DNA of 64,000 nucleotides from Sulfurimonas sp. RIFCSPLOWO2_12_36_12. Lineage in GTDB: Bacteria > Campylobacterota > Campylobacteria > Campylobacterales > Sulfurimonadaceae. A model generated the notes under the pieces. That model did no database searches. It was given only the letters and a program-made list of their open reading frames with translations, and was not told the origin of the DNA. Each line of letters starts with the position of its first letter. Within the stretch, counting starts at the first letter, position 1. The DNA lies in assembly GCF_001829675.1 (NCBI RefSeq), contig NZ_MIBZ01000065.1; one strand, given 5' to 3'. This document shows, in pieces, positions 3,058 through 36,812 of this stretch. Made by a program: the position numbers and the translations under genes.

Positions 3058-3062
3058 GGGCA

Positions 3063-17317: not shown

Positions 17318-19015
17318 CTAAAAATAGCAGTTTATATAAATTTTAAAACTATTTTCCTCGCTCTGAGAGTCTAATACACTTCTCTCTTTATAATCATATT
17401 TGAATTTCAGTTCGGCATTTTGTGAGAGTCTAAAGTTTTGTGAAATTCCAATGAGATTTTGAGCATCGCCCGTATCGTACCATCTTCTAGTCAGTTCTAA
17501 ATTTGTGCTCATGTAGCTAAATTTATCAAAAATAAAACCTAGAGAACTCCCTATTGCTGATTTAAACCCACCATCAAGGTAAAATAGCGGGTCAGCCATA
17601 ATGTAAAGATAGCCAAGCTCATTTCCCCAGCTTAGTCCTGCGCCGATAGTGCCGATAAAGTTTGGTGTAGAATCCAAAGAGTCTTTGTCCCACCCAAATT
17701 TTGTTCTCCAAGAGAGATTTTCAAAGAATTCAGAGCGCTGAGCAAGTGAAACAATGGAGAGGATAGTTGCATTCTCAACATCTAGTTTATTTTGTGAGTA
17801 GGAGAGTTCAAGATTTAAAAACTCAATCTGCGTGCCTCTTAAAAATCCATAATTACTGTCTTCTAGGTCATGATATGCGGGGCGCAGTCCTAAAAATCCT
17901 ATTGAGTTGCCCTCTCTAAAACCGCCACCGATAGAAGTTTTTATTGCTTGATGGCTCTCTATCGGATTTGGTGGAGTTTTAATATCTATTATATTGCCTT
18001 GCCCCAAAGCCGCTCTTGCTTTTGAGATAGCGTGAAAGAGTTTTAAATACTCCTCTTTTTTGATTTTACTTTTGCTGAAGTTATACTCCAACAACTCTAT
18101 GGAGGCTTCTAAAATATACATTTTTTGTTGAACATCAATCTTTTCTCTGTTTATAACATCGCTTACATCGATAGCAGAATTAGCCAGCATAATCGGCAGC
18201 CTGATATGCTCTTCATTAATCAGCTCTTCATATTTTAAGAGGATTGTTCTCTTTGATGGTCTGTAAAAAGTGCTGCTGATTATTTTTTCTGACTTTGTGG
18301 CATGTACGGTTTCAAGCGGAATAACCTGAAAGTTAAAATATTTTCTCAAATCCAAACCCGGTCTTGCAGCTTCTAAAAACCAGAGCATATTATAAGAGCA
18401 GTTCTCGGTAAAAAAATAGTAACTTGAGTGTGTTTCGTTGAGCTCCCAAATATGTCTAACCATCCGAAGAACTTCTTCTTCGCTCAAATCTAAATCATAC
18501 TCCCAAACATCCCTCTGCTCACTGTCTCTATACTCCTTTAGCTTGTCGTAATATGGAAGGAGCGAGTATTTTCCATAGTAACCGCCAAATAGCCCTTTAA
18601 TTGCAAAAAGCGCGCCGTTCTCTTTGTTTGGGTCTGCGTCTGCGGCATAGTTTACGGCATAGGAGAGAAGCTTTGAGTTATATGCAGAGTTTATGCGCAA
18701 AAATGTGTGTCCAAACATAGAGGCAGGAGAGTTGATGTGTGCGGATGGAAAAACTAAGGTTGCAGATTTTGGATTTAATCTTTTGAGCACTTTATCATAC
18801 TCTGTACAATTTACATCCGCAAATTTTGTAATATTTAACTGCTCTTGTAGCCAGGCTTTTCTGGCGGGAAATCTGCATGCTGTTGAGTTGTCGTCAAAAA
18901 TAGTTTCATTTAGCAGAGCGTCAATTGTAGCATTAAGCTCATTTTTTGCATTAGTTTTGCCGTTGAGGGCTAAAAAGAATCTCTTATCGTCTATTTGGCT
19001 GACTCCGTTTTCCAT
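17318..19015 (-). CDS. DUF4105 (Lnb N-terminal-like) protein with C-terminal beta-barrel-like half. The true start is probably upstream, near 19144.
   Basis: 'FPSAHINSPASMFGHTFLRI' is the DUF4105 hallmark. The C-terminus ends in an aromatic residue ('YINCYF'), as in outer membrane proteins. The in-frame upstream extension encodes a signal peptide but has no ATG/GTG/TTG (see findings). Confidence 0.75.
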   Translation of the reverse strand: MENGVSQIDDKRFFLALNGKTNAKNELNATIDALLNETIFDDNSTACRFPARKAWLQEQLNITKFADVNCTEYDKVLKRLNPKSATLVFPSAHINSPASMFGHTFLRINSAYNSKLLSYAVNYAADADPNKENGALFAIKGLFGGYYGKYSLLPYYDKLKEYRDSEQRDVWEYDLDLSEEEVLRMVRHIWELNETHSSYYFFTENCSYNMLWFLEAARPGLDLRKYFNFQVIPLETVHATKSEKIISSTFYRPSKRTILLKYEELINEEHIRLPIMLANSAIDVSDVINREKIDVQQKMYILEASIELLEYNFSKSKIKKEEYLKLFHAISKARAALGQGNIIDIKTPPNPIESHQAIKTSIGGGFREGNSIGFLGLRPAYHDLEDSNYGFLRGTQIEFLNLELSYSQNKLDVENATILSIVSLAQRSEFFENLSWRTKFGWDKDSLDSTPNFIGTIGAGLSWGNELGYLYIMADPLFYLDGGFKSAIGSSLGFIFDKFSYMSTNLELTRRWYDTGDAQNLIGISQNFRLSQNAELKFKYDYKERSVLDSQSEENSFKIYINCYF

Positions 19016-19202
19016 GTGAAGAAGAAGATTCCAATATTTTGACTTCGATAAACTTAGCTCTTCTGCTTTTTGTTTATATGTATCGGCAGAAGCGTTTAAA
19101 AAACTAATGAAAAAAATGAGAATAAAAAGAGATTTTTTTAAAATGAAAAGTTCCTAAGACAGAGAGATTTCCTTGTAGCTCTCGAAAAACATTGTTTTTC
19201 CG

Positions 19203-19276
19203 TAGCTTCAGGGGGTTGGAAGGGACTTTAGTCCCTCACACTAAAACGAACTCGTCCGTTTTAGTGTGTAACATCA
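19203..19276. repeat. double-hairpin intergenic repeat, copy A
   Basis: 'tagcttcagggggttggaagggactttagtccctcacactaaaacgaactcgtccgttttagtgtgtaacat' aligns with copies at 43257-43328 and 62345-62417. Confidence 0.75.
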
Positions 19277-19277
19277 A

Positions 19278-19724
19278 CTATAAAGAAGTAGTTGAGATAT
19301 TATCTAAAACATCAGCCATTGTAGCGTTTTGGCTAGTGTAGATGCTGTTGTAGTTTTCTTGAAGTGATGCTGAGAAAGTTGCTTTATCAGATATTTTTAA
19401 CAGCTCTGCCAAAGTATCAACAGACTCGCCATGACCAATTGCAATCTCTTTTGCAAGCTGATCCATATTTGAAGCTACAAACTCCTGAGCTTGTTCATTC
19501 ATAACGAATTGAGTTTTTTTACAACCCAAAGTTCCTGAAGTAATACCAAAAGTCTGATTACCGAATATACCGTTTGTAGTAGCTTGAAGCGCTAACATTA
19601 TCGCCGTTGAATCATCTTTTATTATTAAAGAACCAAGACCACAACCAGTTTGACTATTTACACCCGCCATTGCAGATGAGCTTAACGCCACAACTGCCAC
19701 TATGCTTACTAAAATTTTTTTCAT
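19278..19724 (-). CDS. DUF3015-family periplasmic protein
   Basis: 148 aa, signal peptide, with 'TGCGLGS' and 'FGITSGT.GC', typical DUF3015 blocks. Confidence 0.65.
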   Translation of the reverse strand: MKKILVSIVAVVALSSSAMAGVNSQTGCGLGSLIIKDDSTAIMLALQATTNGIFGNQTFGITSGTLGCKKTQFVMNEQAQEFVASNMDQLAKEIAIGHGESVDTLAELLKISDKATFSASLQENYNSIYTSQNATMADVLDNISTTSL

Positions 19725-19782
19725 AGAACATTCCTCCGAATTAAGATAAAATTATTGTAAGATTAATTAGCTTAATGAAAAA

Positions 19783-20373
19783 TTAGTTTTTATTTAACTC
19801 TTCGTCTTTCCAATATTTTGTGCCCTGAACGGTAGCTTGCAGAGCAAGTCCGTTTTGCGTCATTTTGTAGAGTCTTATCCCCGGTGCAACAGTCTCAGCG
19901 GCATTTATAGCTCCGCCAGTCTCTTCATATTTTGCAGCAGCGTCAGCTTGTGCGTTTGCTTCCCAACCTGAGTTTACAAAAGTATCATATGTTTTTTTAT
20001 CTTCAAATAAAAATACCGCCCTGAAATCTTTAACGCCAAGACCAAGACCTAAGCCGCCCGAAGCCATATTCATGTAGGTATTTATGCCGGTTCTATTGTT
20101 GTGCGCCATCCCTTTTCCGCCCTCAGCCGAAAGCAAAACAAGATTAACCCCGATGTTGGTAAAAGTCGCATATCCGTAAGAGCTAAGTATCATGTTTTTT
20201 GCTTCAGGTGCATATTTATAGAGCAGTTGCAGAGTTTCATTATTTGTCATGATGCGATTTACTCTCTCCAATCTATTCTCTTCTCTTATCTCTTTCTTGG
20301 TTTTTCCTGACCAGAAACCGGAGAATAAAACAACAACAAGAAGCAAACCGAAAATTAATTTTAAATGTTTCAT
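19783..20373 (-). CDS. SYLF (DUF500/Ysc84-like) lipid-binding domain protein
   Basis: 196 aa with an N-terminal anchor and Gly-rich blocks 'AEGGKGM', 'ASGGLGLGLGVKDFRAVFLF' and 'GLALQATVQGTKY'. Confidence 0.5.
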   Translation of the reverse strand: MKHLKLIFGLLLVVVLFSGFWSGKTKKEIREENRLERVNRIMTNNETLQLLYKYAPEAKNMILSSYGYATFTNIGVNLVLLSAEGGKGMAHNNRTGINTYMNMASGGLGLGLGVKDFRAVFLFEDKKTYDTFVNSGWEANAQADAAAKYEETGGAINAAETVAPGIRLYKMTQNGLALQATVQGTKYWKDEELNKN

Positions 20374-20513
20374 TATGGCAACCTTTATTTATGGCAATAA
20401 TAATATCATAATTTATTAAAATAGATAAACTGCTTAATACAGACAGATTTTAATCTATAATGTTATTATTATGAAAAATAATAATGGGTGCTTAACCCGC
20501 TAAAAGGATTAAA

Positions 20514-21170
20514 TTGAAACTACAAAAAATATTGAGCGTTGCTGTTTTTGGTGTGATGTTTTTAATGAACGGTTGTGCAGGCAAGAGCGTGGAAGCAAAA
20601 AACACGGGATTTTTTAAAGATTATGAGCAATTTGGCAACTCTGCAGGTTTAAGTGCAACAAAAAGTTCAAAAGATGTTGACATGTCAAAATATAAAACCG
20701 TTTTTGTCTCTCCGGTTGAGGTTATATCGGCAATTCCGCAAGAGCAGCAGACGCCTTTGCAAAAAAAACTTTATAAAGAGATTTCAGATTATTTAACGGA
20801 CGGATATAAAAAAGAGATTCAAAAAAGCGCAAGATACATGTTAGCTGAAACAAAAAGCCCAAATACATTAAAGCTAGAATCTGCAATTTCAACAGTCGAA
20901 GTACATTTTGATGATGATAAATGGAACCAATTTTCGCCCATAGCAATGGATATTACGGTAACTTCTTACAACTCTTATGCGGATGAAAATGTTCGAATTT
21001 TGGGTGAAAAGCGCATTGTTGATTCAGTGACGCAAGAGGTGCTGTTTGAGAGTATGGATATAATCAAAGATGAAAAAATCAGTTTAAATGGCGACACTTT
21101 AGAGTTTCAAAACATTAAACCTGCTCTTGATAGATGGATAGAGCATATAAAAAATTATTTTGCCAAATAA
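20514..21170 (+). CDS. DUF3313-like lipoprotein
   Basis: 218 aa, TTG start, lipobox 'LMNGC', then 'GFFKDYEQF' soon after the Cys as in DUF3313. Confidence 0.5.
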   Translation: MKLQKILSVAVFGVMFLMNGCAGKSVEAKNTGFFKDYEQFGNSAGLSATKSSKDVDMSKYKTVFVSPVEVISAIPQEQQTPLQKKLYKEISDYLTDGYKKEIQKSARYMLAETKSPNTLKLESAISTVEVHFDDDKWNQFSPIAMDITVTSYNSYADENVRILGEKRIVDSVTQEVLFESMDIIKDEKISLNGDTLEFQNIKPALDRWIEHIKNYFAK

Positions 21171-21182: not shown

Positions 21183-21929
21183 ATGTCTCTGCAAATAGGC
21201 TGGAACTACTTTCCGCTTGAGGAGATTGCAATAGAGAGCGACACTTTTTGCAGCTCTTTAAATGGGCTTCGCATTGTCCAGCTCTCAGATTTGCATCTTA
21301 CAAAAGATGTCAAAATTGACTATCTTAAAAAGCTTGTAAAAAAAATCAATAATATAAAACCTGACCTTGTCCTCTTTAGCGGAGATATTCTTCAAACCTC
21401 TGCTGTTAACTTAAGGGAACATATAAAATGTTTTAAAGATTTAGAAGCCCCCTCCTACTATGTCACGGGCAATCACGATATCGTTTATGGACCAAAACAT
21501 CTTCAAGAGATTATGCATGAGAGCGGAGTTATATGTTTGGATAATAAAATAGCGGAGATAGAGATTAAAGGCTCTCTTTTGCAGCTAGTCGGCTTAAGCG
21601 ATAGATATGGCTTTATGCGTGGAATCAAGAGACCTATCAAAGAGCTCTTCTGCAAACTAAATCCGGATATATCAACGATACTTCTTACACACCAGCCAAA
21701 AGATATTCTACATGTAGATAATTTTCGCGTTGATATTCAACTAAGTGGGCATACCCATGGCGGGCAAATCTACCCCCTAACTATTATCGTAAAATATTTT
21801 CAGCCATATATATCTGGACTATACAGGTATAAAAACACTCTTTTGTATGTAACAAGAGGATTGGGATATTGGGGCGTAAGGGTTAGATATAAGGCACCAA
21901 GTGAAATACCGATTTTTACCATCAATTAA
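21183..21929 (+). CDS. metallophosphoesterase (YkuE/YaeI-like)
   Basis: 248 aa with 'SDLHL', 'SGDI', 'GNHD' and 'GHTHGGQ'. Confidence 0.88.
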   Translation: MSLQIGWNYFPLEEIAIESDTFCSSLNGLRIVQLSDLHLTKDVKIDYLKKLVKKINNIKPDLVLFSGDILQTSAVNLREHIKCFKDLEAPSYYVTGNHDIVYGPKHLQEIMHESGVICLDNKIAEIEIKGSLLQLVGLSDRYGFMRGIKRPIKELFCKLNPDISTILLTHQPKDILHVDNFRVDIQLSGHTHGGQIYPLTIIVKYFQPYISGLYRYKNTLLYVTRGLGYWGVRVRYKAPSEIPIFTIN

Positions 21930-21972: not shown

Positions 21973-22443
21973 ATGAATAAATTTTTAGTAGCTTTAACTC
22001 TCAGCGTTGCAGTTTTAAGTGCGGCTCCACTTAAAATAGACTCTCCGCTTAGTATCTTGGAGAGTTTTAAATATGAGACGCCGCAAGGGCGACAGATGAA
22101 AATTCCAAACAAAACAAAGTTGGTTATAGTTGCTTTTGAAAAAGATACGGGAGCTCTTGTTAATGAGTATCTAAACACCCAAAGTCCATTCTATCTTCCA
22201 AAAAATAACACTATTTTTATTGCCGACATAAACAAGATGCCTGCAATCGTTACTAACATGTTTGCGTTGCCTAAACTTCAAAAATATAAACATCTTATAT
22301 ATCTGCATTACAGCGATAAACTACAAGATGCAGTGCCTAACAAAGAGCAGAAAATCACCCTTCTTCGTGTTGAGGATTCAAAAATAAAAGAGATATCTTA
22401 TATCTCGACCGTACTAGAACTCAAAACAGCGATTGAGAAGTGA
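21973..22443 (+). CDS. secreted hypothetical protein, first gene of the ABC/HCO-like operon
   Basis: 156 aa with signal peptide 'MNKFLVALTLSVAVLSA'. Its stop overlaps the GTG start of the permease. Confidence 0.5.
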   Translation: MNKFLVALTLSVAVLSAAPLKIDSPLSILESFKYETPQGRQMKIPNKTKLVIVAFEKDTGALVNEYLNTQSPFYLPKNNTIFIADINKMPAIVTNMFALPKLQKYKHLIYLHYSDKLQDAVPNKEQKITLLRVEDSKIKEISYISTVLELKTAIEK

Positions 22444-23513
22444 TAGCGCTAAAAGCACTAAGCAAAAATCCTTTTAAAAGTCTGTTGATATTTTCATCTA
22501 TTACCATTGCGGTAATGGCTATTTTCCTCATAAGCTCGGTTTCACAGGGCGTAATCGGAATGTACTCAAAGATGATTAAAACAGATGGGGATATTATAAT
22601 TACCCAAAAAGGCATCTCTGATACTTTTTTCTCAAATGTTGATATCTCTTTGCTGGAGAAAATAGATAAGCTGGAACATGTAACCTCAAGTTATGCCATG
22701 ATTGTCGGAGCTTCTCCTATCGGGCATATCCCGATAGCCGGTATTTACGGAACAACAGCCAACCACTTTTCTCACTATAAGCTCTCAAGCGGAAAGTACC
22801 CTAAAGAGGGAGAGGTGATTTTAGGAGCAAATCTGGCTAAGCAGTTTGCAACAGTAGGTGTAAATATAGGAAATAAGCGTTTTAGAATCTCTGGAGTTTA
22901 CAGCAGTGATATAGGCTTCGAGGAGGGCGGCGTTGTTATGAACATAGAAGATGCCGGAGTGCTTTTTAACCGCTCGGCTTCTTTTATTTTAGTCTCTTCT
23001 GATTCGCCCAATAAAATAGATAATATTGTAAAAAAAATCTCCGGCATGGATAGCGCTATAGAGGTAAAAACTACAAAAAACTTTGTAAAAGAGTACAACC
23101 AGTTTAAAATCATTGAAAATTCATCATTTGTTATCTCTACGCTTGCTTTTGCAATGGGTCTGATGGGGATTGCCTCAGTCATGAGTATGATTGTGAACTC
23201 TCGCAAAGAGGAGTTTGGCATTATGCGAGCACTTGGCAAAAGCCGGTTTTTTATCATAAAAAATCTCTTTTTTGAGACACTTATAATGAGTCTTTCGGCT
23301 TATCTTTTTGCCCTTGTTCTTAGCCTCGGAATTTTAGCTATGCTTCCGCACATAGAGATGTTGCAGGGGTATGTAAACGGCACGCTATCGCTCTCAACTG
23401 CTCTGTATGTTTTAGCTTCAACGCTCTTTATGGCGCTTTTAGGCTCGCTCATTCCCGCATGGATAGCTTCAAAAACAGACCCGATACTTTTAATAAATCA
23501 AGGATGTGCATGA
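22440..23513 (+). CDS. ABC transporter permease, FtsX/MacB type
   Basis: 357 aa. TM1, a large extracytoplasmic loop, then a C-terminal 3-TM FtsX domain ('R..E.GI.RALG'). Confidence 0.85.
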   Translation: MIALKALSKNPFKSLLIFSSITIAVMAIFLISSVSQGVIGMYSKMIKTDGDIIITQKGISDTFFSNVDISLLEKIDKLEHVTSSYAMIVGASPIGHIPIAGIYGTTANHFSHYKLSSGKYPKEGEVILGANLAKQFATVGVNIGNKRFRISGVYSSDIGFEEGGVVMNIEDAGVLFNRSASFILVSSDSPNKIDNIVKKISGMDSAIEVKTTKNFVKEYNQFKIIENSSFVISTLAFAMGLMGIASVMSMIVNSRKEEFGIMRALGKSRFFIIKNLFFETLIMSLSAYLFALVLSLGILAMLPHIEMLQGYVNGTLSLSTALYVLASTLFMALLGSLIPAWIASKTDPILLINQGCA

Positions 23514-24133
23514 TAAAAGCGTCTAATATTTCACATTTTTACGGGGCAGAGCAGGTGTTATACAACCTCTCATTTGAGATTAAAGAGGGTGGATTTGTTT
23601 TTTTAAGCGGAGAGAGCGGAAGCGGTAAATCAACACTTCTCTCAATTCTCTCAACGCTCTTAAAACCCTCAAGCGGAGAGCTTTTGATAGATGAGGTGTC
23701 AATTGATAAAATTAAAAATATAGACAGTTTTCGCCAAAACAGGATAGGTTTTGTTTTTCAGTTTCACTATCTCATAAACTATCTAAGTGTTTATGAAAAC
23801 ATAGCTCTGGCAGCACTGGAAGAGAAAAAACAGAACATAAACAAAATACTCGAAGAGCTTGGAATTTTGGAATTCTCATCTCGTTACCCAAATGAGATTT
23901 CAGGCGGTCAAAGACAGCGTGTTGCCGTAGCCAGAGCACTTGTAAACGAGCCAAAAATCATCTTTGCGGATGAGCCGACCGGCAGTTTGGATTCTAAAAA
24001 CAGCACAATAGTGTATGAACTGCTGCGTGAGGCGGTAAAAAATGGAACAACCGTCGTGGTCGCTTCTCATGATATGCAGATAGAAAGTTATGCAACACAA
24101 ATTATAAGGCTTAAAGATGGACAAATTTTATAA
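23510..24133 (+). CDS. ABC transporter ATP-binding protein
   Basis: Walker A 'GESGSGKST', signature 'ISGGQRQRVAVARAL' and Walker B 'IIFADEPT'. I prefer the ATG at 23510 (ATGA overlap with the permease stop) over the track start at 23459. Confidence 0.9.
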   Translation: MIKASNISHFYGAEQVLYNLSFEIKEGGFVFLSGESGSGKSTLLSILSTLLKPSSGELLIDEVSIDKIKNIDSFRQNRIGFVFQFHYLINYLSVYENIALAALEEKKQNINKILEELGILEFSSRYPNEISGGQRQRVAVARALVNEPKIIFADEPTGSLDSKNSTIVYELLREAVKNGTTVVVASHDMQIESYATQIIRLKDGQIL

Positions 24134-25658
24134 ATTAATAGAGCAGGTTATGCCTATTTGGGCTTTTATATTTCTTGGCTCTATTTTGGCTGGTGCAATT
24201 TATGGGGCACAGATGTTGGGATTTTCCTCTTTGGACAACACGCTTCTAAATGCTCCGACTGCTAGGTCGCTCCACATAACGCTAATGCTTTACGGACCGA
24301 TTATGCTTGCTTTGTCTCTGCTTCCGTTTGCCCTTTTTGCAAAGGATAAATTAGATTTAAGCGAGGCAGTAGAGCCGTTAAAGAACTACTTTTTGTTATG
24401 GCATCTGTTTCTTTTTATGGCTGTTGTCTCTATCTCTTTGGGAGCCCAGAGAGGTTTGCCTTTTTATGATTTTGCATATGAACTAAACTTTATACTTGCA
24501 GCTTCGGGCATATTTTATATTATTGCAATTTTTAAGAGTATTAAGCATTATGAAATCACACCGCTTTGGGTAAAGGTTTCAAAAGTACTTCTTTTTGTAG
24601 CACCTTTGGCTCTTTTGGTTTTGATGAATCCGACTTACGGGCAGGTTGAAAAGACACTTATCGGACCTCATGGAGACAATACTCTTGGGATGAGTTTTAC
24701 GCTGATTCCTCTCTTTTATCTTATGATAAAACTGCACACAAAAGAGAATTTTATTCCAAAGTGGCATATCTTTTGGATTCTTCCGTTAGCGGGATATGCT
24801 CTCTCCGTCGCAACACGCATATTTATAGGGGAGCTTTCATACAATGAAGAGTGGGTTTATCAATGGCTGACTTTTGCTTATGCTCCGCTTCTGATTAAGT
24901 GGTACAAAGATGCAAAAATAACATACAGACAAAATCCCTATCTTCTCATCTCAATCTGGGCATTTTTGTTTGTAATGATTCAAGGAAATATACTTTTTAT
25001 CCCTGAAATCCGTTGGCCATTCCATAGAAATGATTTGATTGTCGCTCATGCGCATGTCGCTATCGGGCTTGGTATATTTTTTATGTCGCTAAGTATTTTA
25101 AAATATTTTTATAAACTTCCGGAAAAATTTATACATTTTTGGCTTTTAGTAATCGGACTTATTTTTGTTTCTCTCTCTCTTGCCGGTTTTGATGAAGCCG
25201 CTGTTTTTGCAGTCGATGTAATTTTTATGTGGCAGATTCGTCTTATCGCTGGGATAGTTGCTGTTATTGGTTTGACCTACTACATTGTAAAAAAGATGAA
25301 AATTGCCAGATTGTCTAGGCTTCAGTTCTACCATCTAAACGGTTTTTTATCTGATGGCTTGGGTGCGTTGATACTCTTCTTGTCAGCGCCGCTGCTGTTT
25401 GAGTTTTTAGGACTCTCCTTTAGCCCGTACTACTATCTGGTATTTGGGTTTATGGGATTTGTAGGTATTTTACATCTGATAGGAGTAACAAAAGAGGCGC
25501 ACTTTTTGGCATATTTGACATCAATCGCACGCCTCATTACGGGAACAGTTTTCTTTTCTCTCTTTTATTTGGGAACAATAGACTCTCTAGGCTTGCTTGT
25601 AGGGTTTTATGACATCTCGTATGCTCTCTTGTATCTTATTTTTAGAAGCCGTCTATGA
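24117..25658 (+). CDS. polytopic membrane protein (about 14 TM) with heme-copper-oxidase subunit I-like histidine motifs; function unknown
   Basis: 513 aa. 'ARSLHITLMLYGP' and 'IVAHAHVAIGLGIFF' resemble the helix II His and helix X HxH of the NorB encoded in this same window. Confidence 0.6.
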   Translation: MDKFYKLIEQVMPIWAFIFLGSILAGAIYGAQMLGFSSLDNTLLNAPTARSLHITLMLYGPIMLALSLLPFALFAKDKLDLSEAVEPLKNYFLLWHLFLFMAVVSISLGAQRGLPFYDFAYELNFILAASGIFYIIAIFKSIKHYEITPLWVKVSKVLLFVAPLALLVLMNPTYGQVEKTLIGPHGDNTLGMSFTLIPLFYLMIKLHTKENFIPKWHIFWILPLAGYALSVATRIFIGELSYNEEWVYQWLTFAYAPLLIKWYKDAKITYRQNPYLLISIWAFLFVMIQGNILFIPEIRWPFHRNDLIVAHAHVAIGLGIFFMSLSILKYFYKLPEKFIHFWLLVIGLIFVSLSLAGFDEAAVFAVDVIFMWQIRLIAGIVAVIGLTYYIVKKMKIARLSRLQFYHLNGFLSDGLGALILFLSAPLLFEFLGLSFSPYYYLVFGFMGFVGILHLIGVTKEAHFLAYLTSIARLITGTVFFSLFYLGTIDSLGLLVGFYDISYALLYLIFRSRL

Positions 25659-26563
25659 CACACTCTTTAGCACTGGTTTTACTTCTTGGATTTGAGTTAA
25701 GCTACTATCTTTTAATAGTTCAAACAGGAATAGCCGGACACTACAATTCTGATTTGATAACACTTTTTCCAATGTTTGCGGGCGGTGTTTTGGGAACTTT
25801 TTTGGGTGGAAGATCTTGGGGTGCGATAAATAATCCAATTCATAAAATAATGATTGCCTTGGCTCTACAGTTAGGGCTATCGTTTCTTTATCCAAATTAC
25901 AATGTTTTTACTCTGCTGCTCTTGGGTATTGCGGTCGGTGTTATGGCTCCTTTGGGAATATATCTTTTTAAAGCAAAACAGCAAAAAGAGCTTCTGCTTG
26001 CACTTGCAATAGCCTATACGACAGGTACATTCTTTTTTACATCCGTAGTGGATGATAGATTGTGGATGGCAGTTCTTTTTACTTCAATTACGCTTCTTAG
26101 TGTTTTTATACTTAAAGATTATAGAGTTGAAACGGATGCCAAGGTAGTCTCACACTCGTTTTTATCATATACCCCGTTAATGTTATGGATACTTCTGGAT
26201 TCAAATCTTTTTGAAACACTCGCTCGTCATGCGAGTTTGGATATCTGGTCAAAATATACATTTATTATAATTACATTTCATCTGCTTGGGCTGATTGCGT
26301 CCTACTTTACGCGTACATCAAAGATAAAACAGCATATCTTTATAGCATTTCTCTTCATAGGAAGCTATACATTCTCTTATTTTGAGTATCCAATTGCTTT
26401 GGCTATGATATACCCTTTTGTAATCTCATACTACAATGTTGTCGTCTTTACGACACTGAGCCAAGAGATGAGTGTATCAAAGCTTTCATTTATGATGATT
26501 TTTGTCGGTTGGATAGCTTCAGGGCTTGGTTTAGCAATTGCACTTTCAAAACTTCTACATTAA
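25655..26563 (+). CDS. polytopic membrane protein, unknown function
   Basis: 302 aa, roughly 8-10 hydrophobic segments. ATGA-type 4-nt overlap with the upstream gene. Confidence 0.6.
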   Translation: MTHSLALVLLLGFELSYYLLIVQTGIAGHYNSDLITLFPMFAGGVLGTFLGGRSWGAINNPIHKIMIALALQLGLSFLYPNYNVFTLLLLGIAVGVMAPLGIYLFKAKQQKELLLALAIAYTTGTFFFTSVVDDRLWMAVLFTSITLLSVFILKDYRVETDAKVVSHSFLSYTPLMLWILLDSNLFETLARHASLDIWSKYTFIIITFHLLGLIASYFTRTSKIKQHIFIAFLFIGSYTFSYFEYPIALAMIYPFVISYYNVVVFTTLSQEMSVSKLSFMMIFVGWIASGLGLAIALSKLLH

Positions 26564-26612
26564 AATAAAATATATGTTAGAATTGTGCCATTTTATATAA
26601 TAAGGATTTACG

Positions 26613-27137
26613 ATGAAAAAAATATTAGTTGGATTACTTTTGACCCTTCCTCTTTTTGCTATTAATTTAGAGTTAAAGAGCGGTTCTGTCGCTGCACACA
26701 CAGAGATGATGATGGATAGTACGATTGATCCAAAAAATGACGCTTTGAAAGCCGATATAAGCATAAACAACAATGACATAGCAACCATAAAAGGAAAATT
26801 CTGGGTTGAGACGGGTCTCTTTAAAAGTGATAAGAGCGATAGAGATAAGAGTATGTATAAAGATATTGAAGCAGATAAATTTAAATTGGCTACATATACT
26901 GTCTCAAGCGTAAAAAAAGCAGATGGTCAAGATAGCTATATTATTGAGGGTGTCTTGAATTTTCATGGAAAAGAGAAGCAACTTAGTGCAAAGGCTAAGA
27001 TAACAACGATAGACGGCAGTTTGAGCATCAATGCCGCTTCAATGATTTTAATGAGTGATTATGGCATTAAAATGCCGTGTATGGTCTTTATGTGTGTTCG
27101 TGACAGGGTAGATCTTTTAATAGATGCCAAATTTTAA
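26613..27137 (+). CDS. YceI-family periplasmic (polyisoprenoid/lipid-binding) protein
   Basis: 174 aa, signal peptide. 'F.S.K..RD..M......FE..K...A.F......G.L..HG' is the YceI-like layout. Confidence 0.75.
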   Translation: MKKILVGLLLTLPLFAINLELKSGSVAAHTEMMMDSTIDPKNDALKADISINNNDIATIKGKFWVETGLFKSDKSDRDKSMYKDIEADKFKLATYTVSSVKKADGQDSYIIEGVLNFHGKEKQLSAKAKITTIDGSLSINAASMILMSDYGIKMPCMVFMCVRDRVDLLIDAKF

Positions 27138-27172: not shown

Positions 27173-28357
27173 TTACATTTTAGGAATGCGCGGTATTTTA
27201 TTTAATTTTGAGAGTTTATAATAGATGCCCCATCCCTTTTTAAGCCAGTGCCCTACAACAGGCAGCGGGATTATAAAATCTTTTGAATCATCTCTATAAA
27301 TTAAAGAAGCGCCATCTCCGGTGTCCATCACACAAAGAATATTTATATGCTCCCTGTAGCCTTTGAACTCATCTTTGTTGTTATCTTTTTGCATAATATT
27401 AAAAGCTACATTTCTTGCCATAACTTCGGCGACATGCCCCTGTTTTGCTCTCCATGGAGCTCCATCAAGAGCCGCTATATCGCCAATCGCATATATATTG
27501 CTTGATTCATTTGAGTCTTGAAGCCTAACTTGACAAAAATCATCAATTGTAATAAATCCAGCTTCATTTGTCGGCAAATCCGAGTTTCTTACGAGGTCGT
27601 GCCCGTCTCCTGCGGGAGTAAATATTGTAAAATCTGATTCTAATTTGGAGTCGTCTTCAAATATAATACCGTCCTCTTCAAAGCGTTTTATATTTTTACC
27701 GATGTGCTGTTTTATATTTAGTTTTTTTAAAAAAATATTTAAAGTTTTAAGAGCTTTTGGACCCATCTTCTTTCCAGGGTCGGGCATCGGTGCAAAAAAT
27801 GTCAGTTCAAAATTATCCCTAATACCTTTTTTCTTTAACATGTTATGAACATTAAAAAGCAGCTCAAATGTAGGACCGCCGCGAACCGCAGATGTATCAT
27901 TAGGGTTGTTGCCAAAACCAAAATAGATTTTTCCGGAGCCTTTTTTTATAAGGGCATCAATTTTATCCCGTATTAGAAGCGATTGTTCAGGAGCTCCACA
28001 GATGGAGAGGGTATTTTCAAGACCATCATGTTTGATTTTAGAACTGCCCATCGCTAAAATTACATGTGAAAAGTTACTTAAAATTTTTTTGCTTTTTAGC
28101 GTATAACTACCGCTCTTTACATCTATTTTTTCAACACTATCTATTATAAGATTAAATCCGTGGATATCTTTTAACTTATCTAAATCAATACAGGCATCAG
28201 AAAAATCAATCTCCCTTGTAGGTATCCATATTGAAGTAGGATAAACATAGAGGTAATTTCTATCGCTTACCAGTGTTACATCGTAAGCAGCTTTTCTTAA
28301 AAATATAGCTGCTTCTAAGCCGGCAAATCCACCGCCCAGTATAAGAACGCTTTTCAC
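27173..28357 (-). CDS. FAD-dependent pyridine nucleotide-disulfide oxidoreductase, sulfide:quinone oxidoreductase-like
   Basis: 394 aa with 'VLILGGGFAGLEAA' and 'IYAIGDIA'. Candidate redox Cys in 'SICGAPE' and 'LCVMDTGDGA', placed as in SQRs. Confidence 0.6.
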   Translation of the reverse strand: MKSVLILGGGFAGLEAAIFLRKAAYDVTLVSDRNYLYVYPTSIWIPTREIDFSDACIDLDKLKDIHGFNLIIDSVEKIDVKSGSYTLKSKKILSNFSHVILAMGSSKIKHDGLENTLSICGAPEQSLLIRDKIDALIKKGSGKIYFGFGNNPNDTSAVRGGPTFELLFNVHNMLKKKGIRDNFELTFFAPMPDPGKKMGPKALKTLNIFLKKLNIKQHIGKNIKRFEEDGIIFEDDSKLESDFTIFTPAGDGHDLVRNSDLPTNEAGFITIDDFCQVRLQDSNESSNIYAIGDIAALDGAPWRAKQGHVAEVMARNVAFNIMQKDNNKDEFKGYREHINILCVMDTGDGASLIYRDDSKDFIIPLPVVGHWLKKGWGIYYKLSKLNKIPRIPKM

Positions 28358-29226: not shown

Positions 29227-29916
29227 TTAAACAGGAACTATTTTATATCCGGAGCCGTAGATATTGTAAATTATATCATTTGGTAACTTCACGCGTATTC
29301 GTTTCATAAGAGATGTTATGGCGTGAATTGAAAACTCTTTTTCATCTTTACCCTCATGAAGATAATCAAAAATCTCTTTTGCTCCAAAGCAGTGATTTGG
29401 CTCGGAAAACAGCAATTTAAGCAGTAGATTTTCCATTTTTCTTAATTTAATCTCTTTTGAATTTCCCCAAAGAGTATTTGTATCATTATCCCAGTAGATG
29501 GTATCAGTTACATAAGTACGGTTTGTTGTTTTTCTTATAAGCTCTACGGTTTCAAGCAAAACATTTTTTAGCGTATCATTTTTTATCGGTTTTATCAGAT
29601 AACTCTCAAGATGCAGTTTGATTGCTTGAAGAAGTTTTTCCTGTTCAGAGTGAGCGCTCATAACTATTATTTTTGTATCTTTATCATGCTCTCTTATTTT
29701 AGCAATCATATCTAAGCCGTCAAGATTTGGCATACTAATATCTGTTAAAATAATATTTGGTCTCTTTTGTTGATAGATATCATATGCTTCATTTCCGCAT
29801 GCCGCAGAGTAGACTCTATTAAAAAAGAGTTGTAAATATTCGCATAGCATTTCGCGCAGTTCCGCTTCATCTTCAGCCAGTAAAATCGATATATCTCTAA
29901 TTTTTTCAGTTTTCAT
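29227..29916 (-). CDS. response regulator with OmpR-like winged-helix output
   Basis: 229 aa. Receiver domain 'ILLAEDE', 'ILTDISMPNLDG', 'SAHSE' and 'YL.KP'. C-terminal 'L.KRIRVKL......I.NIYGSGYKI'. Confidence 0.85.
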   Translation of the reverse strand: MKTEKIRDISILLAEDEAELREMLCEYLQLFFNRVYSAACGNEAYDIYQQKRPNIILTDISMPNLDGLDMIAKIREHDKDTKIIVMSAHSEQEKLLQAIKLHLESYLIKPIKNDTLKNVLLETVELIRKTTNRTYVTDTIYWDNDTNTLWGNSKEIKLRKMENLLLKLLFSEPNHCFGAKEIFDYLHEGKDEKEFSIHAITSLMKRIRVKLPNDIIYNIYGSGYKIVPV

Positions 29917-31432
29917 TTTTTATCTTTATGATGAATTCGGCTCCAAGCTTTACATTATTACTATTGTAGATGTTTTTTGCGCTTAAACTCCCATTCATAT
30001 TCTCCTCTATAATCATTTTTGCTATATGTAAACCAAGACCGGTTCCCATTGATTTGTGTTTTGTCGTGAAGTATGGGTCAAATATTTTGCTTAAATTCTC
30101 GTCATTTATTCCTCCACAATTATCCGCTATTGTAAGAGTTGTGTATTCGTCATTTCTATATAGAGCAATTGTAATATTTGCATCTGCCAGATTTTTGGTT
30201 GTTATTAAATCATCTATATTAGATAAAATTGAAACAAGTACCTGAATAAACTCATTTATTAATCCATAAATCTTATATTCGCTATTAAGTAGAAGATTTA
30301 TCTTAACGCCTCTGTTATTTTGTTCCAAATTGACAATATCTAGTGCTTTTTCTACGGCTGTATTGATGCTAAACCAAGATTTTTGCTTGTCAGGACTGTA
30401 GTAGTTCATAAAGTCTTCTATTGTTTCAGACATATATGTTACTCGTTTTTCCATTTTTTCAAGTTTATCGTCAATTTCATCTTTGCTCAACACATCTGCT
30501 CTATTTTTTTCTTTGAGTATTGCCAGCGAAGTGTTGATAATTGCCAGAGGTTGACGCCATTGATGTGCAATATTTCCAATCATCTCGCCAATCTCTGCTC
30601 TTTTTGATTGTTCAAAGAGCAATAAATTTCGCTCTTTTATGGTGTGTTCTTTCCTTTGTAACTCGTCTATGGTGTCTATAAGTTCACGATTGTACTTCTC
30701 TTCTATATACAATCCGCAATCAAGATTTTTCATGTCTTTAATCAGTTCGCTGATATATTTTTTCTCTATTATAGAACCATGCTGAGGAGCTATTAAACTT
30801 ATATCAAGCTTTTCGATTTTACCAAGAGCATAATTGAAAATATCTTTGCTTGGCATATACTCCTGATGAAACTGTTTTGCTTTGTCAAAGTATGTCTCAT
30901 CTGCATAAAAATCCCAAGATTCGTCAATCCCTCCAAAAATATCACCTGAAAAAAGAGTTTTTGAGCTAGATTCATAACTTACAAATGCTCCGGGAGAGTG
31001 GCAGTATGGAGTAGTCAAAAAATCAAGTTTAAACCCACTAGCTGTTACTAATTTATTGTCATGTTTATCTATCTCATAGTAGCTTGAAGTTACCAAATAG
31101 TGCTTGATTAAAACCGACATTCTGGAGTGGGTTACAATTTGGAGGTCATCTCTGTTTATCAGTTTTTCTATCTCTGGTACTGCTGCTGCTAAATCAGGGT
31201 CTTGGTGATGCAGTATGATGTATTTTATAGATTTGATATCAATAATAGTTTTTACTTTTCTAACAGTTTCGCTAAACTCAATCATAGAGCCGGGGTCTAT
31301 GAGAATCGACTCGTCACCATTTTTTATCAAGTACGGGTGGCACTGAAATGGGTCATTTTTTAAGTGCATGCCAACCCAATAGATGTTTGGCGCTATTAGC
31401 ACTGCTTCCGAGGTATTAAGCTCTTTAGGCAT
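29906..31432 (-). CDS. soluble sensor histidine kinase with an N-terminal flavodiiron/ODP-like metallo-beta-lactamase domain
   Basis: N-half: 'IYWVG', 'ILHHQDPD', 'PYCHSPG', 'LFSGDIFG' and 'IAPQHG'. C-half: H-box 'IAHQWRQPL', 'DNCGGI' and 'GTGLGLHIAKMI'. No TM segment. Start is ATG 31432 (no overlap) or ATG 31471 (47-nt overlap with nirE). Confidence 0.8.
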   Translation of the reverse strand: MPKELNTSEAVLIAPNIYWVGMHLKNDPFQCHPYLIKNGDESILIDPGSMIEFSETVRKVKTIIDIKSIKYIILHHQDPDLAAAVPEIEKLINRDDLQIVTHSRMSVLIKHYLVTSSYYEIDKHDNKLVTASGFKLDFLTTPYCHSPGAFVSYESSSKTLFSGDIFGGIDESWDFYADETYFDKAKQFHQEYMPSKDIFNYALGKIEKLDISLIAPQHGSIIEKKYISELIKDMKNLDCGLYIEEKYNRELIDTIDELQRKEHTIKERNLLLFEQSKRAEIGEMIGNIAHQWRQPLAIINTSLAILKEKNRADVLSKDEIDDKLEKMEKRVTYMSETIEDFMNYYSPDKQKSWFSINTAVEKALDIVNLEQNNRGVKINLLLNSEYKIYGLINEFIQVLVSILSNIDDLITTKNLADANITIALYRNDEYTTLTIADNCGGINDENLSKIFDPYFTTKHKSMGTGLGLHIAKMIIEENMNGSLSAKNIYNSNNVKLGAEFIIKIKNEN

Positions 31433-32165
31433 TTTCCTCAAACCACTGTAACTGTTCTCTAAGTTCGACAACTTTTCCTACAACTATAAGAGCAGGAGTC
31501 GGAACATCTTTAGTTTTTTGAACAATATTTTCCAATGTTCCAACAACCACGCTCTGCTCTTTAGTTGTTCCTTTGGAGATTACCGCACATGGGTAATCTT
31601 TTGCCTTGCCAATCTCCATAAGTTTTTTACTTATTTTTGGAAGATTGTGCAATCCCATCAAAAATACGATTGTATCATCGGTTTTAAATGTATCCCATGG
31701 AATCTGAGACTCTTTTTTATGAGGAGATTCATGCCCCGTTACTACTCTAAAGCTAACGGCAACACCGCGGTGGGTTACAGGTATGCCCGCATATGCCGGA
31801 GCACTGATGGCCGATGTAATACCGGGAATAATTTCAAATTTAATGCCTCTTTCATAAAGATACTGAGCCTCTTCGCCGCCGCGTCCAAAAACAAAAGGGT
31901 CACCGCCTTTTAGACGAACTACATTGTCATATTTTAAAGCATTTTGATATATAACCTCATTAATGTCATCTTGAGGGACAATATGGCGTCCATCCTCTTT
32001 GCCGACATAGACAAACTCACACCCATTTTTGGCTTCACTTAAAATATCTGGGTTGGCTAAACGGTCGTAAATAATTACATCCGCTTCTTTAATTACACGA
32101 AGCGCTTTTAGAGTTAATAACTCTATATCCCCGGGGCCTGCACCCGTTAAATAAACTTTACCCAT
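31425..32165 (-). CDS. cobA: uroporphyrinogen-III C-methyltransferase (SUMT; NirE role in heme d1 synthesis)
   Basis: 246 aa with 'VYLTGAGPGD.ELLT.KA', 'DVIIYDRL' and 'RLKGGDPFVFGRGGEE'. Confidence 0.9.
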   Translation of the reverse strand: MGKVYLTGAGPGDIELLTLKALRVIKEADVIIYDRLANPDILSEAKNGCEFVYVGKEDGRHIVPQDDINEVIYQNALKYDNVVRLKGGDPFVFGRGGEEAQYLYERGIKFEIIPGITSAISAPAYAGIPVTHRGVAVSFRVVTGHESPHKKESQIPWDTFKTDDTIVFLMGLHNLPKISKKLMEIGKAKDYPCAVISKGTTKEQSVVVGTLENIVQKTKDVPTPALIVVGKVVELREQLQWFEENA

Positions 32166-34940: not shown

Positions 34941-36584
34941 TTATGCACCTGGAATAGTTTGTCTGTGCTCGATTGAGTAAGTAAATGTAGGAGTTGTTAA
35001 ACCAGTAATGTATTTAACAAATTTACCTGTTTTAGATTCGTATACACCGATACGACCTGCATTCCACTCAGAAATCATAGTCCAGTAACCATGGTTAGCC
35101 GGCTCAGCGTGAAGAATTCTAGGAACAAGTGCTTCGCCCTTCTCATTTTTTACAGTTGGAACATCCCATTTGTATAGTACTTTGTGAGTTACAGGGTCTA
35201 TTACTGTACCTTCAGTTGTACCAACAGTTATGATTCTATCAACTTCAAGAGTTTGCTTGTTGATCAAGTGAACTTGATTCCAAACTTCGCTTGATCCAAG
35301 TACATTGTCTGCCCATAGGAAAGGAGTGTGCTCAGATGTACCGATAAATAGACCGCCACCGCCGATTGGAATTTGACGAATAACATCAAAGTTATCATCC
35401 CAAATTGTTACTTGACCTAAGTTCATGTTAACAGTAGCGCCAAGTTGTTGACCTAAGCCCTCATTGTACCAAGAAGAACCTTGACCTGGGTGTGGTTTAG
35501 ATGCTGGACCTGTATAGATTTTAGTAACTAAAGATTTAGTTTTAAAGTCTACAACACCAACAACGTCACTTCCTTGAGAAGCGATAAATAGGTAACGACC
35601 AATCTCTTTACCTTCATTTAAGAAACCATCATGAAGAATATCTCCAATGTTTGGAATATCTCCAACAATTGGGTAGTTTGGTTTAGAGTAATCTACGATA
35701 TAAACGTGACCACCGTCTTTAAGTGCGAATGCAATATAAGGACCGTACGGAGTATCAAAAATACCAGCTACACGAGATGAATCGATGTCACCGTTTGGTT
35801 TGATAACGCTTGAAGTCGGGTAAACTTTTAACGGCTCAAGAGTCATAGCATCAAGTAGAATAGCTCCGCCCGGTACATAGTTACCAGCCATTAGGAATTT
35901 ACCATCCGGAGATACTGCAAGACCGCGAGATTCAGAACCAACTTGAACTTCAGCAATTTTTTGTTGACCCGGTGTATTTAAGTCAAACATTGTTACTAAA
36001 CCTGAACGAGAGATTGAGTAAGCATAACGAGGTTGACGCTTGTTTGTAACTGTTACGTGAACAGCGAAACCAGCTGGGTGCTTAGATAAAATTTTACCGT
36101 TTGTACCATCAACGAATGCAACGCGCTCAGCATCTCTTTCTGTTACGAAACAGATATCTGTGTTTTTCTTAACATCAGCAGGATTTGGATATTTTGTAAA
36201 AAATGCTGCTCTGTCATTAAGAGGCTTCCAACCAGCTTTAACTGTCTCTAAAGTAAGTTGTTTAATAACTCTGCCTTTAAAGTGTTGAATATAATCAACC
36301 ATTTTATCAGCATCGTCTTTAGAGAACTTATCTTTAAATGAAGGCATAGCAGTACCTGCACGGCCATTTAAAATAACTTCAGTAAGTGCATAAGCATTTT
36401 TCTTAGCAGTAACCGCTGGACGTAAATCAGAACCAACACCACCCTCTAAGTTAGGACCGTGACAACCTTGACACTCTTTTTCGAAAACTTTCTCTACGTC
36501 CATCGTACTAGCCGCTTGAACAAGCATACCTGAACCAACAACTGCCATAGCAGCAACTGACATAACTAATTTATTTAATCTCAT
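34941..36584 (-). CDS. nirS: cytochrome cd1 nitrite reductase NirS
   Basis: Signal peptide, 'CQGCHG' heme c site, and a d1 eight-bladed propeller region. Start set to ATG 36582-36584, with AAGGAGA 7 nt upstream. The track's extra 17 codons are a translated GC hairpin. Confidence 0.95.
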   Translation of the reverse strand: MRLNKLVMSVAAMAVVGSGMLVQAASTMDVEKVFEKECQGCHGPNLEGGVGSDLRPAVTAKKNAYALTEVILNGRAGTAMPSFKDKFSKDDADKMVDYIQHFKGRVIKQLTLETVKAGWKPLNDRAAFFTKYPNPADVKKNTDICFVTERDAERVAFVDGTNGKILSKHPAGFAVHVTVTNKRQPRYAYSISRSGLVTMFDLNTPGQQKIAEVQVGSESRGLAVSPDGKFLMAGNYVPGGAILLDAMTLEPLKVYPTSSVIKPNGDIDSSRVAGIFDTPYGPYIAFALKDGGHVYIVDYSKPNYPIVGDIPNIGDILHDGFLNEGKEIGRYLFIASQGSDVVGVVDFKTKSLVTKIYTGPASKPHPGQGSSWYNEGLGQQLGATVNMNLGQVTIWDDNFDVIRQIPIGGGGLFIGTSEHTPFLWADNVLGSSEVWNQVHLINKQTLEVDRIITVGTTEGTVIDPVTHKVLYKWDVPTVKNEKGEALVPRILHAEPANHGYWTMISEWNAGRIGVYESKTGKFVKYITGLTTPTFTYSIEHRQTIPGA

Positions 36585-36612
36585 TTTATTTCTCCTTCTA
36601 AAATAGATAAAC

Positions 36613-36635
36613 GTGCAGGCCCGAAGGCCCGGCAC
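36613..36635 (-). other. GC-rich RNA hairpin with a cUUCGg tetraloop between the small ORF and nirS
   Basis: Minus strand 'gtgccgggcc-ttcg-ggcctgcac'. There is no following U-run, so it is not a canonical terminator. Confidence 0.5.
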
Positions 36636-36649
36636 AACTTAGTAACTGA

Positions 36650-36802
36650 TTAACTCTCTTGCTCTAGACGAGCTTTTTCTTGTTTGTAAATCCAAAACAT
36701 TGGAAGTACGATAACAGTATGTAAAAAAATTGTTAGAGTCAAAGGACCTTGGTTTAACCAACCAAAGAAACTTGGAACTACATCTACAAATGGTTCAAAC
36801 AT
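36650..36802 (-). CDS. unannotated 50-aa membrane protein between norB and nirS
   Basis: Own translation: MFEPFVDVVPSFFGWLNQGPLTLTIFLHTVIVLPMFWIYKQEKARLEQES. AAGGAGA lies 5 nt upstream of the ATG, and the ORF starts 11 nt after the norB stop. Confidence 0.55.
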   Translation of the reverse strand: MFEPFVDVVPSFFGWLNQGPLTLTIFLHTVIVLPMFWIYKQEKARLEQES

Positions 36803-36812
36803 AACTTTCTCC

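Follow-up and report, generated by a model that had tools for sequence, protein, structure and literature searches.

Introduction

The heme-copper oxidase (HCO) superfamily underlies aerobic respiration and nitric oxide (NO) reduction, and to our knowledge every characterised branch of it keeps a binuclear centre made of a heme plus CuB or FeB. In this work we describe a six-gene locus at positions 21973-27137 of a 64,000-nt stretch of DNA (the window) from Sulfurimonas sp. RIFCSPLOWO2_12_36_12 (contig NZ_MIBZ01000065.1, assembly GCF_001829675.1). The locus encodes an HCO-like membrane protein (g4) together with a MacB-type ATP-binding cassette (ABC) transporter (permease g2 and ATPase g3), a membrane protein with the fold of the major facilitator superfamily (MFS; g5), a YceI-like protein (g6) and a secreted protein (g1). 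The evidence presented here makes it very likely that these genes form one conserved module of several components, with a copper-less HCO homologue at its centre.

Parts of this arrangement have described relatives. MacB-type transporters that work without an adaptor and TolC, such as LolCDE, FtsEX and HrtBA, carry out ATP-driven extraction or movement at the outer face of the inner membrane, and the YceI family (Pfam PF04264) consists of polyisoprenoid- or lipid-binding proteins. In E. coli the periplasmic YceI is encoded beside the membrane cytochrome b561 (yceI-yceJ). Our locus likewise places a YceI gene beside the gene of a predicted di-heme b-type membrane protein, but the fold is that of an HCO and not the four-helix b561, and the ABC transporter, the MFS-like protein and g1 are extra. 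In cydABCD and nosZ-nosDFY a respiratory-type metalloenzyme is also encoded with an ABC system; those transporters are of the type IV exporter or ABC-2 fold and supply cofactors, whereas here the fold is MacB-type, the gene order is different and the genes have overlapping codons. We know of no MacB-type member described as operon-coupled to an HCO-like protein. An earlier note on this DNA, made by a model from the sequence, had said the same of described systems, and our literature search agrees with it: the module is not mentioned in the papers covered, a 2024 survey of HCO and NO reductase (NOR) diversity included (PMC11214002), this coverage being partial and an earlier description elsewhere being possible.

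Results

g4, a divergent subunit I of the HCO superfamily

The product of g4 (513 aa) is a genuine subunit I of the HCO superfamily, although its sequence has diverged strongly. It matched Pfam COX1 (PF00115) over residues 16-356 with 16.1 bits (E = 0.005) against a gathering score of 34.8 bits. COX1 was matched at E <= 0.01 by 37 of 46 g4 orthologues (best 1e-9), and two members of a sister clade described below (P0298 and P0299) exceed the COX1 cut-off. When the g4 family was aligned by hhalign with a small NorB/CcoN profile, the probability was 98.1% (E = 8e-14, 394 columns) and exactly the motif pairs proposed in the earlier note were brought together; with three NOR sequences from PDB added to the profile the probability was still 97.6%. 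The relation is significant only with this small profile and by fold, as the g4 family profile gave no HCO match among all PDB sequences and hhalign against a single NorB sequence returned a probability of 0.6%.

The fold was examined on an AlphaFold2 (AF2) model of g4 built without templates (pLDDT 85.6, 16 helices). Foldseek returned from PDB only catalytic subunits of HCOs (CcoN, NorB and CoxI chains), with cbb3 CcoN first (E = 6e-7 to 8e-6, TM-score 0.55-0.61; best match E = 6e-7, TM-score 0.56/0.60) and cytochrome c-dependent NOR (cNOR) next (E = 1e-3). The loop charges of g4 fit the HCO topology, and all conserved His lie in the periplasmic half. A search of 1.8 billion representative proteins with the g4 family profile gave just 78 matches, so the family is small and tight. 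Past the family itself the search reached distant HCO-like proteins (P0293, P0298, P0299, P0303, P0310 and P0311), and beyond these true cbb3-type sequences (P0308 and the CcoNOP fusion P0314). The profile comparisons named in the earlier note thus had two outcomes: membership of the HCO superfamily is upheld by the significant hhalign and Foldseek matches and by the COX1 matches of the orthologues, and a relationship to NnrS found no support in the Pfam scan, which at E <= 1 returned COX1 alone for g4 and nothing for g5.

g4 keeps the heme ligands and appears to have lost the metal site

Conservation in g4 was judged on the 46 orthologues (46-86% identity), in which about 95 residues are invariant, among them H53, H185, D187, Y227, R234, E245, W246, H303, H311, H313 and R375. 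The counterparts of these residues in NorB are listed in Table 1 in P. aeruginosa NorB numbering. The earlier note had compared H53, H311 and H313 with the heme ligands of the NorB encoded in the same window; its positions and quoted motifs in g4 are correct, and the NorB motifs were located in the open reading frame (ORF) 36813-38279 (-). All three His are invariant down to 46% identity and also in the distant sister clade. The sequence points to a bis-His low-spin heme site (H53/H313) and the proximal His of a five-coordinate heme (H311) having been kept in g4, and we infer that the protein binds heme.

The metal site appears to be different. The HH pair of helix VII is replaced by T233/R234, and H185 in 'GPHGDN', which is invariant, is probably the counterpart of the helix VI ligand. 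Helix counting on the AF2 model agrees with the alignment at the metal site (transmembrane helix (TM) 6 = 186-207, TM7 = 218-236). The absence of CuB/FeB counterparts claimed in the earlier note therefore holds for the HH pair and probably does not hold for H185, which aligns with the helix VI His; the second His it had considered, H217 in 'KWHIFW', is not conserved among the orthologues and was dropped as a candidate ligand. With at most one of the three metal ligands left and an invariant Arg at the place of a CuB His, the canonical CuB/FeB site seems to be gone from g4, and a protein with two hemes and no catalytic non-heme metal would fit these data. At the H185 position the sister clade has Thr, and what it has in common with g4 comes down to the three His of the heme sites, the Arg of helix XII and one Gln of helix VIII. 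The g4 family is best called a putative new copper-less branch of the HCO superfamily, predicted to lack the defining binuclear centre.

Comparison with the two nearest enzymes shows both the kinship and the distance. With cbb3 CcoN (PDB 3mk7), g4 shares the 12-TM core and the His residues for low-spin heme b and high-spin heme b3 in helices II and X, but it is without the helix VII HH pair, has four extra C-terminal helices and is only 13-16% identical. In the sister clade, as in cbb3, a mono-heme cytochrome c of the CcoO type is the partner; unlike cbb3, the Campylobacterota operon is without CcoO/CcoP and has instead an MFS-like partner and an obligatory neighbouring ABC transporter. With NorB of cNOR or quinol-dependent NOR (qNOR) (PDB 3o0r and 4xyd), g4 aligns at the heme His, H303, H185 and D187, but the FeB ligands H258/H259 are replaced, a NorC-like gene was not found in the operon and the Foldseek match is weaker than to CcoN.

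Table 1. Genes and domains of the locus, and g4 residues with their NorB counterparts (window positions; for residues, the position of the codon).
Feature	Position	Strand	Basis
g0, calcineurin-like metallophosphoesterase, cytoplasmic, YaeI/LpxG-like, probable accessory gene of the module	21183-21929	+	Pfam Metallophos, 56.8 bits
g1, secreted protein, 156 aa, family without annotation	21973-22443	+	signal-peptide-like N-terminus
g2, MacB-type (type VII ABC) permease, 357 aa, GTG start	22440-23513	+	Pfam FtsX and MacB_PCD
g3, ABC ATPase, partner of g2, 207 aa from ATG at 23510	23510-24133	+	ABC_tran
g4, whole, HCO-subunit-I-like, 513 aa	24117-25658	+	AF2, Foldseek, hhalign
g4 core, residues 1-395, 12-TM HCO-subunit-I-like domain	24117-25301	+	AF2, Foldseek, hhalign
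g4 C-terminal 4-TM extension, residues about 396-513	25302-25658	+	AF2 helices; hidden Markov model (HMM)
g5, compact polytopic protein, 302 aa, 11 helices, MFS-like fold	25655-26563	+	AF2, Foldseek
g6, periplasmic YceI-like protein, 174 aa	26613-27137	+	Pfam YceI
g4 H53 = NorB H60, low-spin heme ligand	24273		hhalign
g4 H185 = NorB H207, helix VI metal ligand	24669		hhalign, low-confidence part
g4 D187 = NorB E211, FeB Glu			hhalign, low-confidence part
g4 T233 = NorB H258, helix VII metal ligand			hhalign, low-confidence part
g4 R234 = NorB H259, helix VII metal ligand	24816		hhalign, low-confidence part
g4 H303 = NorB H339, conserved His 8 residues before HxH	25023		hhalign
g4 H311 = NorB H347, high-spin heme ligand	25047		hhalign
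g4 H313 = NorB H349, low-spin heme ligand	25053		hhalign
g4 R375 = Arg of helix XII 'W-R' motif, present in the window's NorB			hhalign

The gene order is conserved in Campylobacterota

The six ORFs between 21973 and 27137 all lie on the plus strand at the places given in the earlier note, and its four overlaps were seen when the junction sequences were read directly: GTGA at 22440 (g1/g2), ATGA at 23510 (g2/g3), 17 nt at 24117-24133 (g3/g4) and ATGA at 25655 (g4/g5). A 49-nt spacer between g5 and g6 holds an AAGGA ribosome-binding site ahead of the YceI gene. The metallophosphoesterase gene g0 ends 43 nt upstream of g1 on the same strand; its product scores 112 bits against NCBIfam YaeI and 121 bits against LpxG, both under cut-off. 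Two antisense ORFs, one inside the FtsX gene (22898-23257 (-), 119 aa) and one at the start of g5 (25653-25895 (-), 80 aa), are most likely spurious.

To judge conservation of the gene order, one genome per species was scanned; relatives of g4 were found in at least 209 stretches, and the best 80 were analysed. Nearly all of these 80 are from Campylobacterota, one being labelled only 'Proteobacteria bacterium'. Two further loci were added, and the gene counts below, made by our own ORF calling and single-linkage clustering, refer to the resulting 82 Campylobacterota loci, with Sulfurimonas, Sulfurovum, Sulfuricurvum, Sulfurospirillum, Arcobacter, Halarcobacter, Malaciobacter and Poseidonibacter among the genera. 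The order FtsX-ABC-HCO-like-g5-YceI is fixed in almost all of them: g4 is present in 82/82 loci, g3 in 81/82, g2 in 78/82, g5 in 73/82 and g6 in 69-70/82, and contig ends are at least partly to blame for the missing g2, g5 and g6. The gene of the secreted protein g1 (55/82) precedes FtsX in Sulfurimonas and Sulfuricurvum; in the Arcobacter group it follows YceI. Conservation of the neighbourhood, which the earlier note had asked about, thus extends across all sampled Campylobacterota genera and, as described below, outside the phylum. None of the module proteins in the 82 loci contains a CxxCH motif.

Some neighbours recur with the module and others do not. A metallophosphoesterase gene stands upstream or downstream of it in 45/82 loci and the gene of a metallo-beta-lactamase (MBL)-fold hydrolase in 19/82; the two never occur together in one locus (e.g. 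L002 and L044-L068 versus L004-L043), so they look like alternative enzymes for one role, as in non-orthologous replacement. In the Arcobacter group the module is followed in the same direction by genes for an OmpR-type regulator and a CusS-like kinase. The associations that the earlier note had suggested with an SQR-like gene and with the nir/nor region were not borne out. Only 2/80 loci have the SQR-like gene beside the module, and it was left out of the system for that reason; the nir/nor region lies 8-12 kb away, outside the conserved neighbourhood. An ispA-dxs pair beside the module (L002/L049), considered as an isoprenoid link in Campylobacterota, was rejected because it was seen in one genome only.

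A sister clade carries homologous parts

Distant homologues form a sister clade of at least 239 metagenome loci plus one locus from an Acidobacteriota metagenome-assembled genome (MAG); 80 of the metagenome loci were retrieved. The sister order is YceI - farnesyl diphosphate (FPP)-synthase-like - FtsX - ABC - HCO-like - 4-TM - MFS-like::CcoO - response regulator (RR) - CusS-like histidine kinase (HK) - MBL hydrolase. HMMs built from the Campylobacterota proteins matched the corresponding sister proteins for FtsX (E = 4e-63), the ABC ATPase (E = 1e-55), g1 (E = 4e-33; proteins in 12 sister loci), YceI (E = 1e-19), the HCO-like core (E = 2e-13) and g5 (E = 6e-11). Since the sister clade has these corresponding homologous parts, we concluded that the pairing of an HCO-like protein with a MacB-type transporter is an old conserved association.

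The presence of the single genes was counted in loci with sufficient flanking sequence. FtsX was shown in 32/38 sister loci with >4 kb upstream; in five of the other six the ORF filter had kept antisense ORFs, of the kind that occurs in high-GC sister loci, at the FtsX/ABC place, and only L088, the Acidobacteriota MAG locus, is clearly without it. L088 alone carries a transporter with an MMPL/sterol-sensing domain in place of the ABC pair. In the same 38 loci YceI was present in 31 and the prenyl synthase in 29; the latter, a short-chain prenyl-diphosphate synthase, scores 130 bits against NF045485 (cut-off 275). A g5-like gene and/or a FixO gene was found in 35/39 loci with >2.5 kb downstream. 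The sister-clade HCO-like proteins carry the motif 'NPDSGGATG', and the two-component system resembles heavy-metal or envelope-stress sensors (TIGR01386, 211-224 bits, under cut-off). One locus (L084) has an additional PEMT/ICMT-type methyltransferase.

The C-terminal extension of g4 and its MFS-like partner

The four helices of the g4 extension (401-430, 439-458, 461-484 and 490-509 in the AF2 model) contain the invariant residues D413, H453, R472 and D499. In most sister-clade loci the 4-TM unit is a separate small gene: an HMM of this extension matched (E = 2e-4) a protein of 125-145 aa whose gene comes directly behind the HCO-like one. The AF2 model of g5 (pLDDT 92.3, 11 helices) resembles many MFS transporters by Foldseek (E = 5e-6, TM-score 0.55-0.67), and searches of g5 against Pfam, NCBIfam and PDB gave no family and no MFS sequence match. 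Its invariant polar residues within the membrane are Q23, T24, Q72, D182, E187, R191 and H209. The sister-clade proteins matched by the g5 HMM through their membrane domain are accompanied by a cytochrome c of the CcoO type, which is either fused to this domain or encoded after it: a CxxCH motif is present in 28/50 of the g5-like proteins, with a separate FixO gene otherwise, and the CcoO domain matches TIGR00781 at E = 4e-26 (92 bits; cut-off 200.65 bits). Homologues of g5 labelled 'beta-carotene 15,15'-dioxygenase' by JGI gave no Pfam match at E <= 1 and no NCBIfam Brp/Blh match, and this identity was rejected.

The ABC transporter, YceI and g1

The permease g2 scores above cut-off against both Pfam FtsX (57.3 bits) and MacB_PCD (57.6 bits) and consists of a 4-TM FtsX domain and a periplasmic MacB_PCD domain; its best PDB sequence matches are generic MacB-type permeases. 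In the ATPase g3 (ABC_tran, 124 bits) Walker A, Q-loop, signature, Walker B (DEP) and H-loop are intact. The NCBIfam Lol equivalogs were not reached (LolCE 60.7 vs 362 bits, LolD 185.7 vs 307.75 bits), and neither a MacA-type adaptor nor a TolC channel was found in or beside the module in the window or among its recurrent neighbours. Like LolCDE, FtsEX and HrtBA, g2/g3 combine an FtsX permease carrying MacB_PCD with a separate nucleotide-binding subunit and have no membrane-fusion or TolC gene, and YceI could play the part of LolA as periplasmic carrier; unlike them, g2/g3 remain below every NCBIfam equivalog cut-off.

The YceI assignment of g6 is secure (50.8 bits vs a cut-off of 23.7). By eye, g1 and g6 both have signal-peptide-like N-termini without a lipobox Cys. 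The protein g1 matched no family in Pfam, NCBIfam or PDB and carries the invariant motif FIA-I--MP----FA-PK; a Cys-less thioredoxin/YtfJ-like fold suggested by eye was supported by no tool result. None of g1, g5 and the 4-TM module could be placed in an annotated family.

Other features of the window

Between the module and nirS/norCB lies an RR/HK gene pair (29227-31471 (-)) of a type different from the CusS-like systems of the Arcobacter group and the sister clade. The first ~190 residues of its 521-aa HK are similar to the di-iron metallo-beta-lactamase-like domain found in flavodiiron NO/O2 reductases (E = 8e-13 against the NorV model), and the HK gene overlaps that of the OmpR-like RR by 11 nt. 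From its sequence the pair may be an NO/O2-sensing two-component system. The nir/nor genes (34941-38880 (-)) encode the cytochrome cd1 nitrite reductase NirS (564 aa), NorB (488 aa; COX1 174 bits) and NorC (217 aa). The SQR-like gene (27173-28357 (-), GTG start) is convergent with the YceI gene; its product, an SQR-like/pyridine-nucleotide-disulfide oxidoreductase, scores 70 of 525 bits against type III SQR, far under cut-off.

Upstream of the module an envelope block (17318-21170) encodes an Lnb-like protein with DUF7840/7843 (565 aa), a DUF3015 protein, a Ysc84-like protein and a DUF3313 lipoprotein, the gene of the last being co-directional with the metallophosphoesterase gene. The block is kept upstream of the module in 13-16 Sulfurimonas loci only and is probably a lineage-specific neighbour. 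At 1591-4199 (+) an MBOAT-family membrane O-acyltransferase gene (488 aa, 139 bits) is followed by that of a 378-aa protein without a Pfam match; the pair looks like a polysaccharide- or teichoic-acid-type O-acylation system unrelated to the module.

The base composition of 21973-27137 is unremarkable. An Rfam search of 19-29.5 kb in the window matched no family, and an anti-phage defence library gave only generic ATPase matches in the region. A promoter scan stayed at chance level (28 found vs 27.4 expected); terminator-like sites were more numerous than in shuffled sequences (12 vs 5.2 +/- 2.6), nearly all of them inside genes.

Discussion

How the module works can be proposed with less assurance than its existence. 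We give an even chance to a copper-less heme reductase complex that cooperates, on the periplasmic side, with the MacB-type transporter as extractor and YceI as carrier in handling an isoprenoid-type ligand. The redox core would be g4, with a low-spin heme on H53/H313 and an open heme on H311, in a complex with the MFS-like g5. In the sister clade the g5 homologue bears a CcoO-type domain, which suggests a reductase with periplasmic electron entry as in cbb3 and cNOR; electrons would come from the periplasm via the heme c and reach the open heme through the low-spin one. No component of the Campylobacterota version carries a c-type heme, so menaquinol or another donor may deliver the electrons, in parallel with the difference between cNOR and qNOR. 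The extractor g2/g3 would convert cytoplasmic ATP into work at the outer leaflet or periplasmic face. Together with the periplasmic YceI and g1 it is coupled to the redox core genetically and probably physically, and it might hand a hydrophobic isoprenoid-type molecule to YceI, as LolCDE hands lipoproteins to LolA, and this molecule would be a substrate or product, or a cofactor, of the heme enzyme. An isoprenoid is proposed because of the sister-clade prenyl synthase, the phosphodiesterase-type hydrolase nearby and the lipid-type transporter of the resistance-nodulation-division type in the locus without FtsX/ABC.

Several points speak against this proposal. The case for heme in g4 is made from ligand conservation only, and the alignment of helices VI-VIII, which puts H185, D187 and R234 at the metal site, falls in the low-confidence part of the hhalign result. 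The Campylobacterota operons are without a prenyl synthase, the isoprenoid link being drawn from the sister clade and from knowledge of the YceI family, and a prenyltransferase is found in the cluster of neither clade. Maturation outside the catalytic cycle would be just as conceivable a role for the ABC transporter and YceI. The MFS-like fold of the g5 model could mean transport and not a structural or electron-entry role.

The alternative that survives best, although we consider it doubtful, is that g4-g5 would be a copper-independent terminal reductase of O2, NO, H2O2 or organic peroxide, with the ABC transporter, YceI and g1 serving maturation or cofactor delivery. Such an enzyme would be expected to have a partner like the sister clade's cytochrome c of the CcoO type and nearest folds like cbb3 oxidase and NOR, and the sister two-component system with its likeness to heavy-metal and envelope-stress sensors would suit it as well. 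H185, D187 and R234 are conserved at metal-site positions in a way that resembles (and only resembles) the distal pockets of peroxidases, and an ABC system serving an oxidase has precedents in CydDC for cytochrome bd and NosDFY/NosL for N2O reductase. On the other hand, the known O2- and NO-reducing HCOs keep the three CuB/FeB His and none is known to work without a second metal. A maturation role is also hard to reconcile with the overlapping codons and the near-universal ABC genes directly upstream of g4, which suggest stoichiometric co-assembly, and it leaves the dedicated FPP-synthase-like gene unexplained.

Two further alternatives are improbable. In one, the module would serve heme or porphyrin handling and detoxification, the MacB-type pump extracting heme like HrtBA and g4 acting as a heme reservoir or chaperone. 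MacAB and HrtBA do handle porphyrin and heme, g2 (357 aa) and g3 (207 aa) have an HrtB/HrtA-like architecture without adaptor or TolC, and g4 has two predicted heme sites; but the generic MacB-type PDB matches of g2 include none specific to HrtB, a CcoO-type electron-entry domain would be unexpected in a heme store, and YceI and the prenyl synthase have no place in it. The other, to which we give equally little credence, makes g4 a membrane heme-based gas or redox sensor, and not a catalyst, that would gate the ABC transporter or signal to the two-component system. An open five-coordinate heme without a second metal would be suited to ligand sensing, and in both the Arcobacter group and the sister clade RR-HK genes come immediately after the module, yet in Sulfurimonas loci this system is not adjacent, the RR/HK pair near the module in the window being of a different type, and a sensor would need neither a CcoO electron-input domain nor a two-heme wire. 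Fortuitous juxtaposition, or g4 as a decaying oxidase pseudogene, is hardly credible despite the low COX1 score of g4 in the window, because the same order is kept by ~80 genomes belonging to many genera as well as by a distant clade, the many invariant residues noted above are maintained and the frames are intact and overlapping.

For the reductase-extractor module a bolder form can be stated, which we regard as tentative and somewhat unlikely: an ancient envelope machine of at least two phyla, in which an HCO scaffold that has lost its copper and bears Arg at a CuB-ligand position would be in physical contact with YceI, an MFS-like subunit and a mechanotransmitting ABC transporter of the MacB type, with redox chemistry at a membrane heme and ATP-driven extraction acting on the same isoprenoid, quinone or peroxidised-lipid molecule. 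If this is true, the HCO superfamily would gain a function outside O2 and NO respiration, and YceI and an orphan MacB subfamily would gain a defined role. Hundreds of genomes, belonging to two phyla or more, carry the module, and its conserved linkage implies either that the HCO scaffold hosts a new chemistry or that transporter and enzyme are coupled in a new way. It also offers a genetic handle on two long-standing orphans, the YceI proteins and the MacB-type transporters without an outer-membrane partner. As sulfur-oxidising and denitrifying Campylobacterota, its hosts are dominant at oxic-anoxic interfaces, and an extra redox/envelope module could bear on how they withstand O2, NO, sulfide or peroxide stress.

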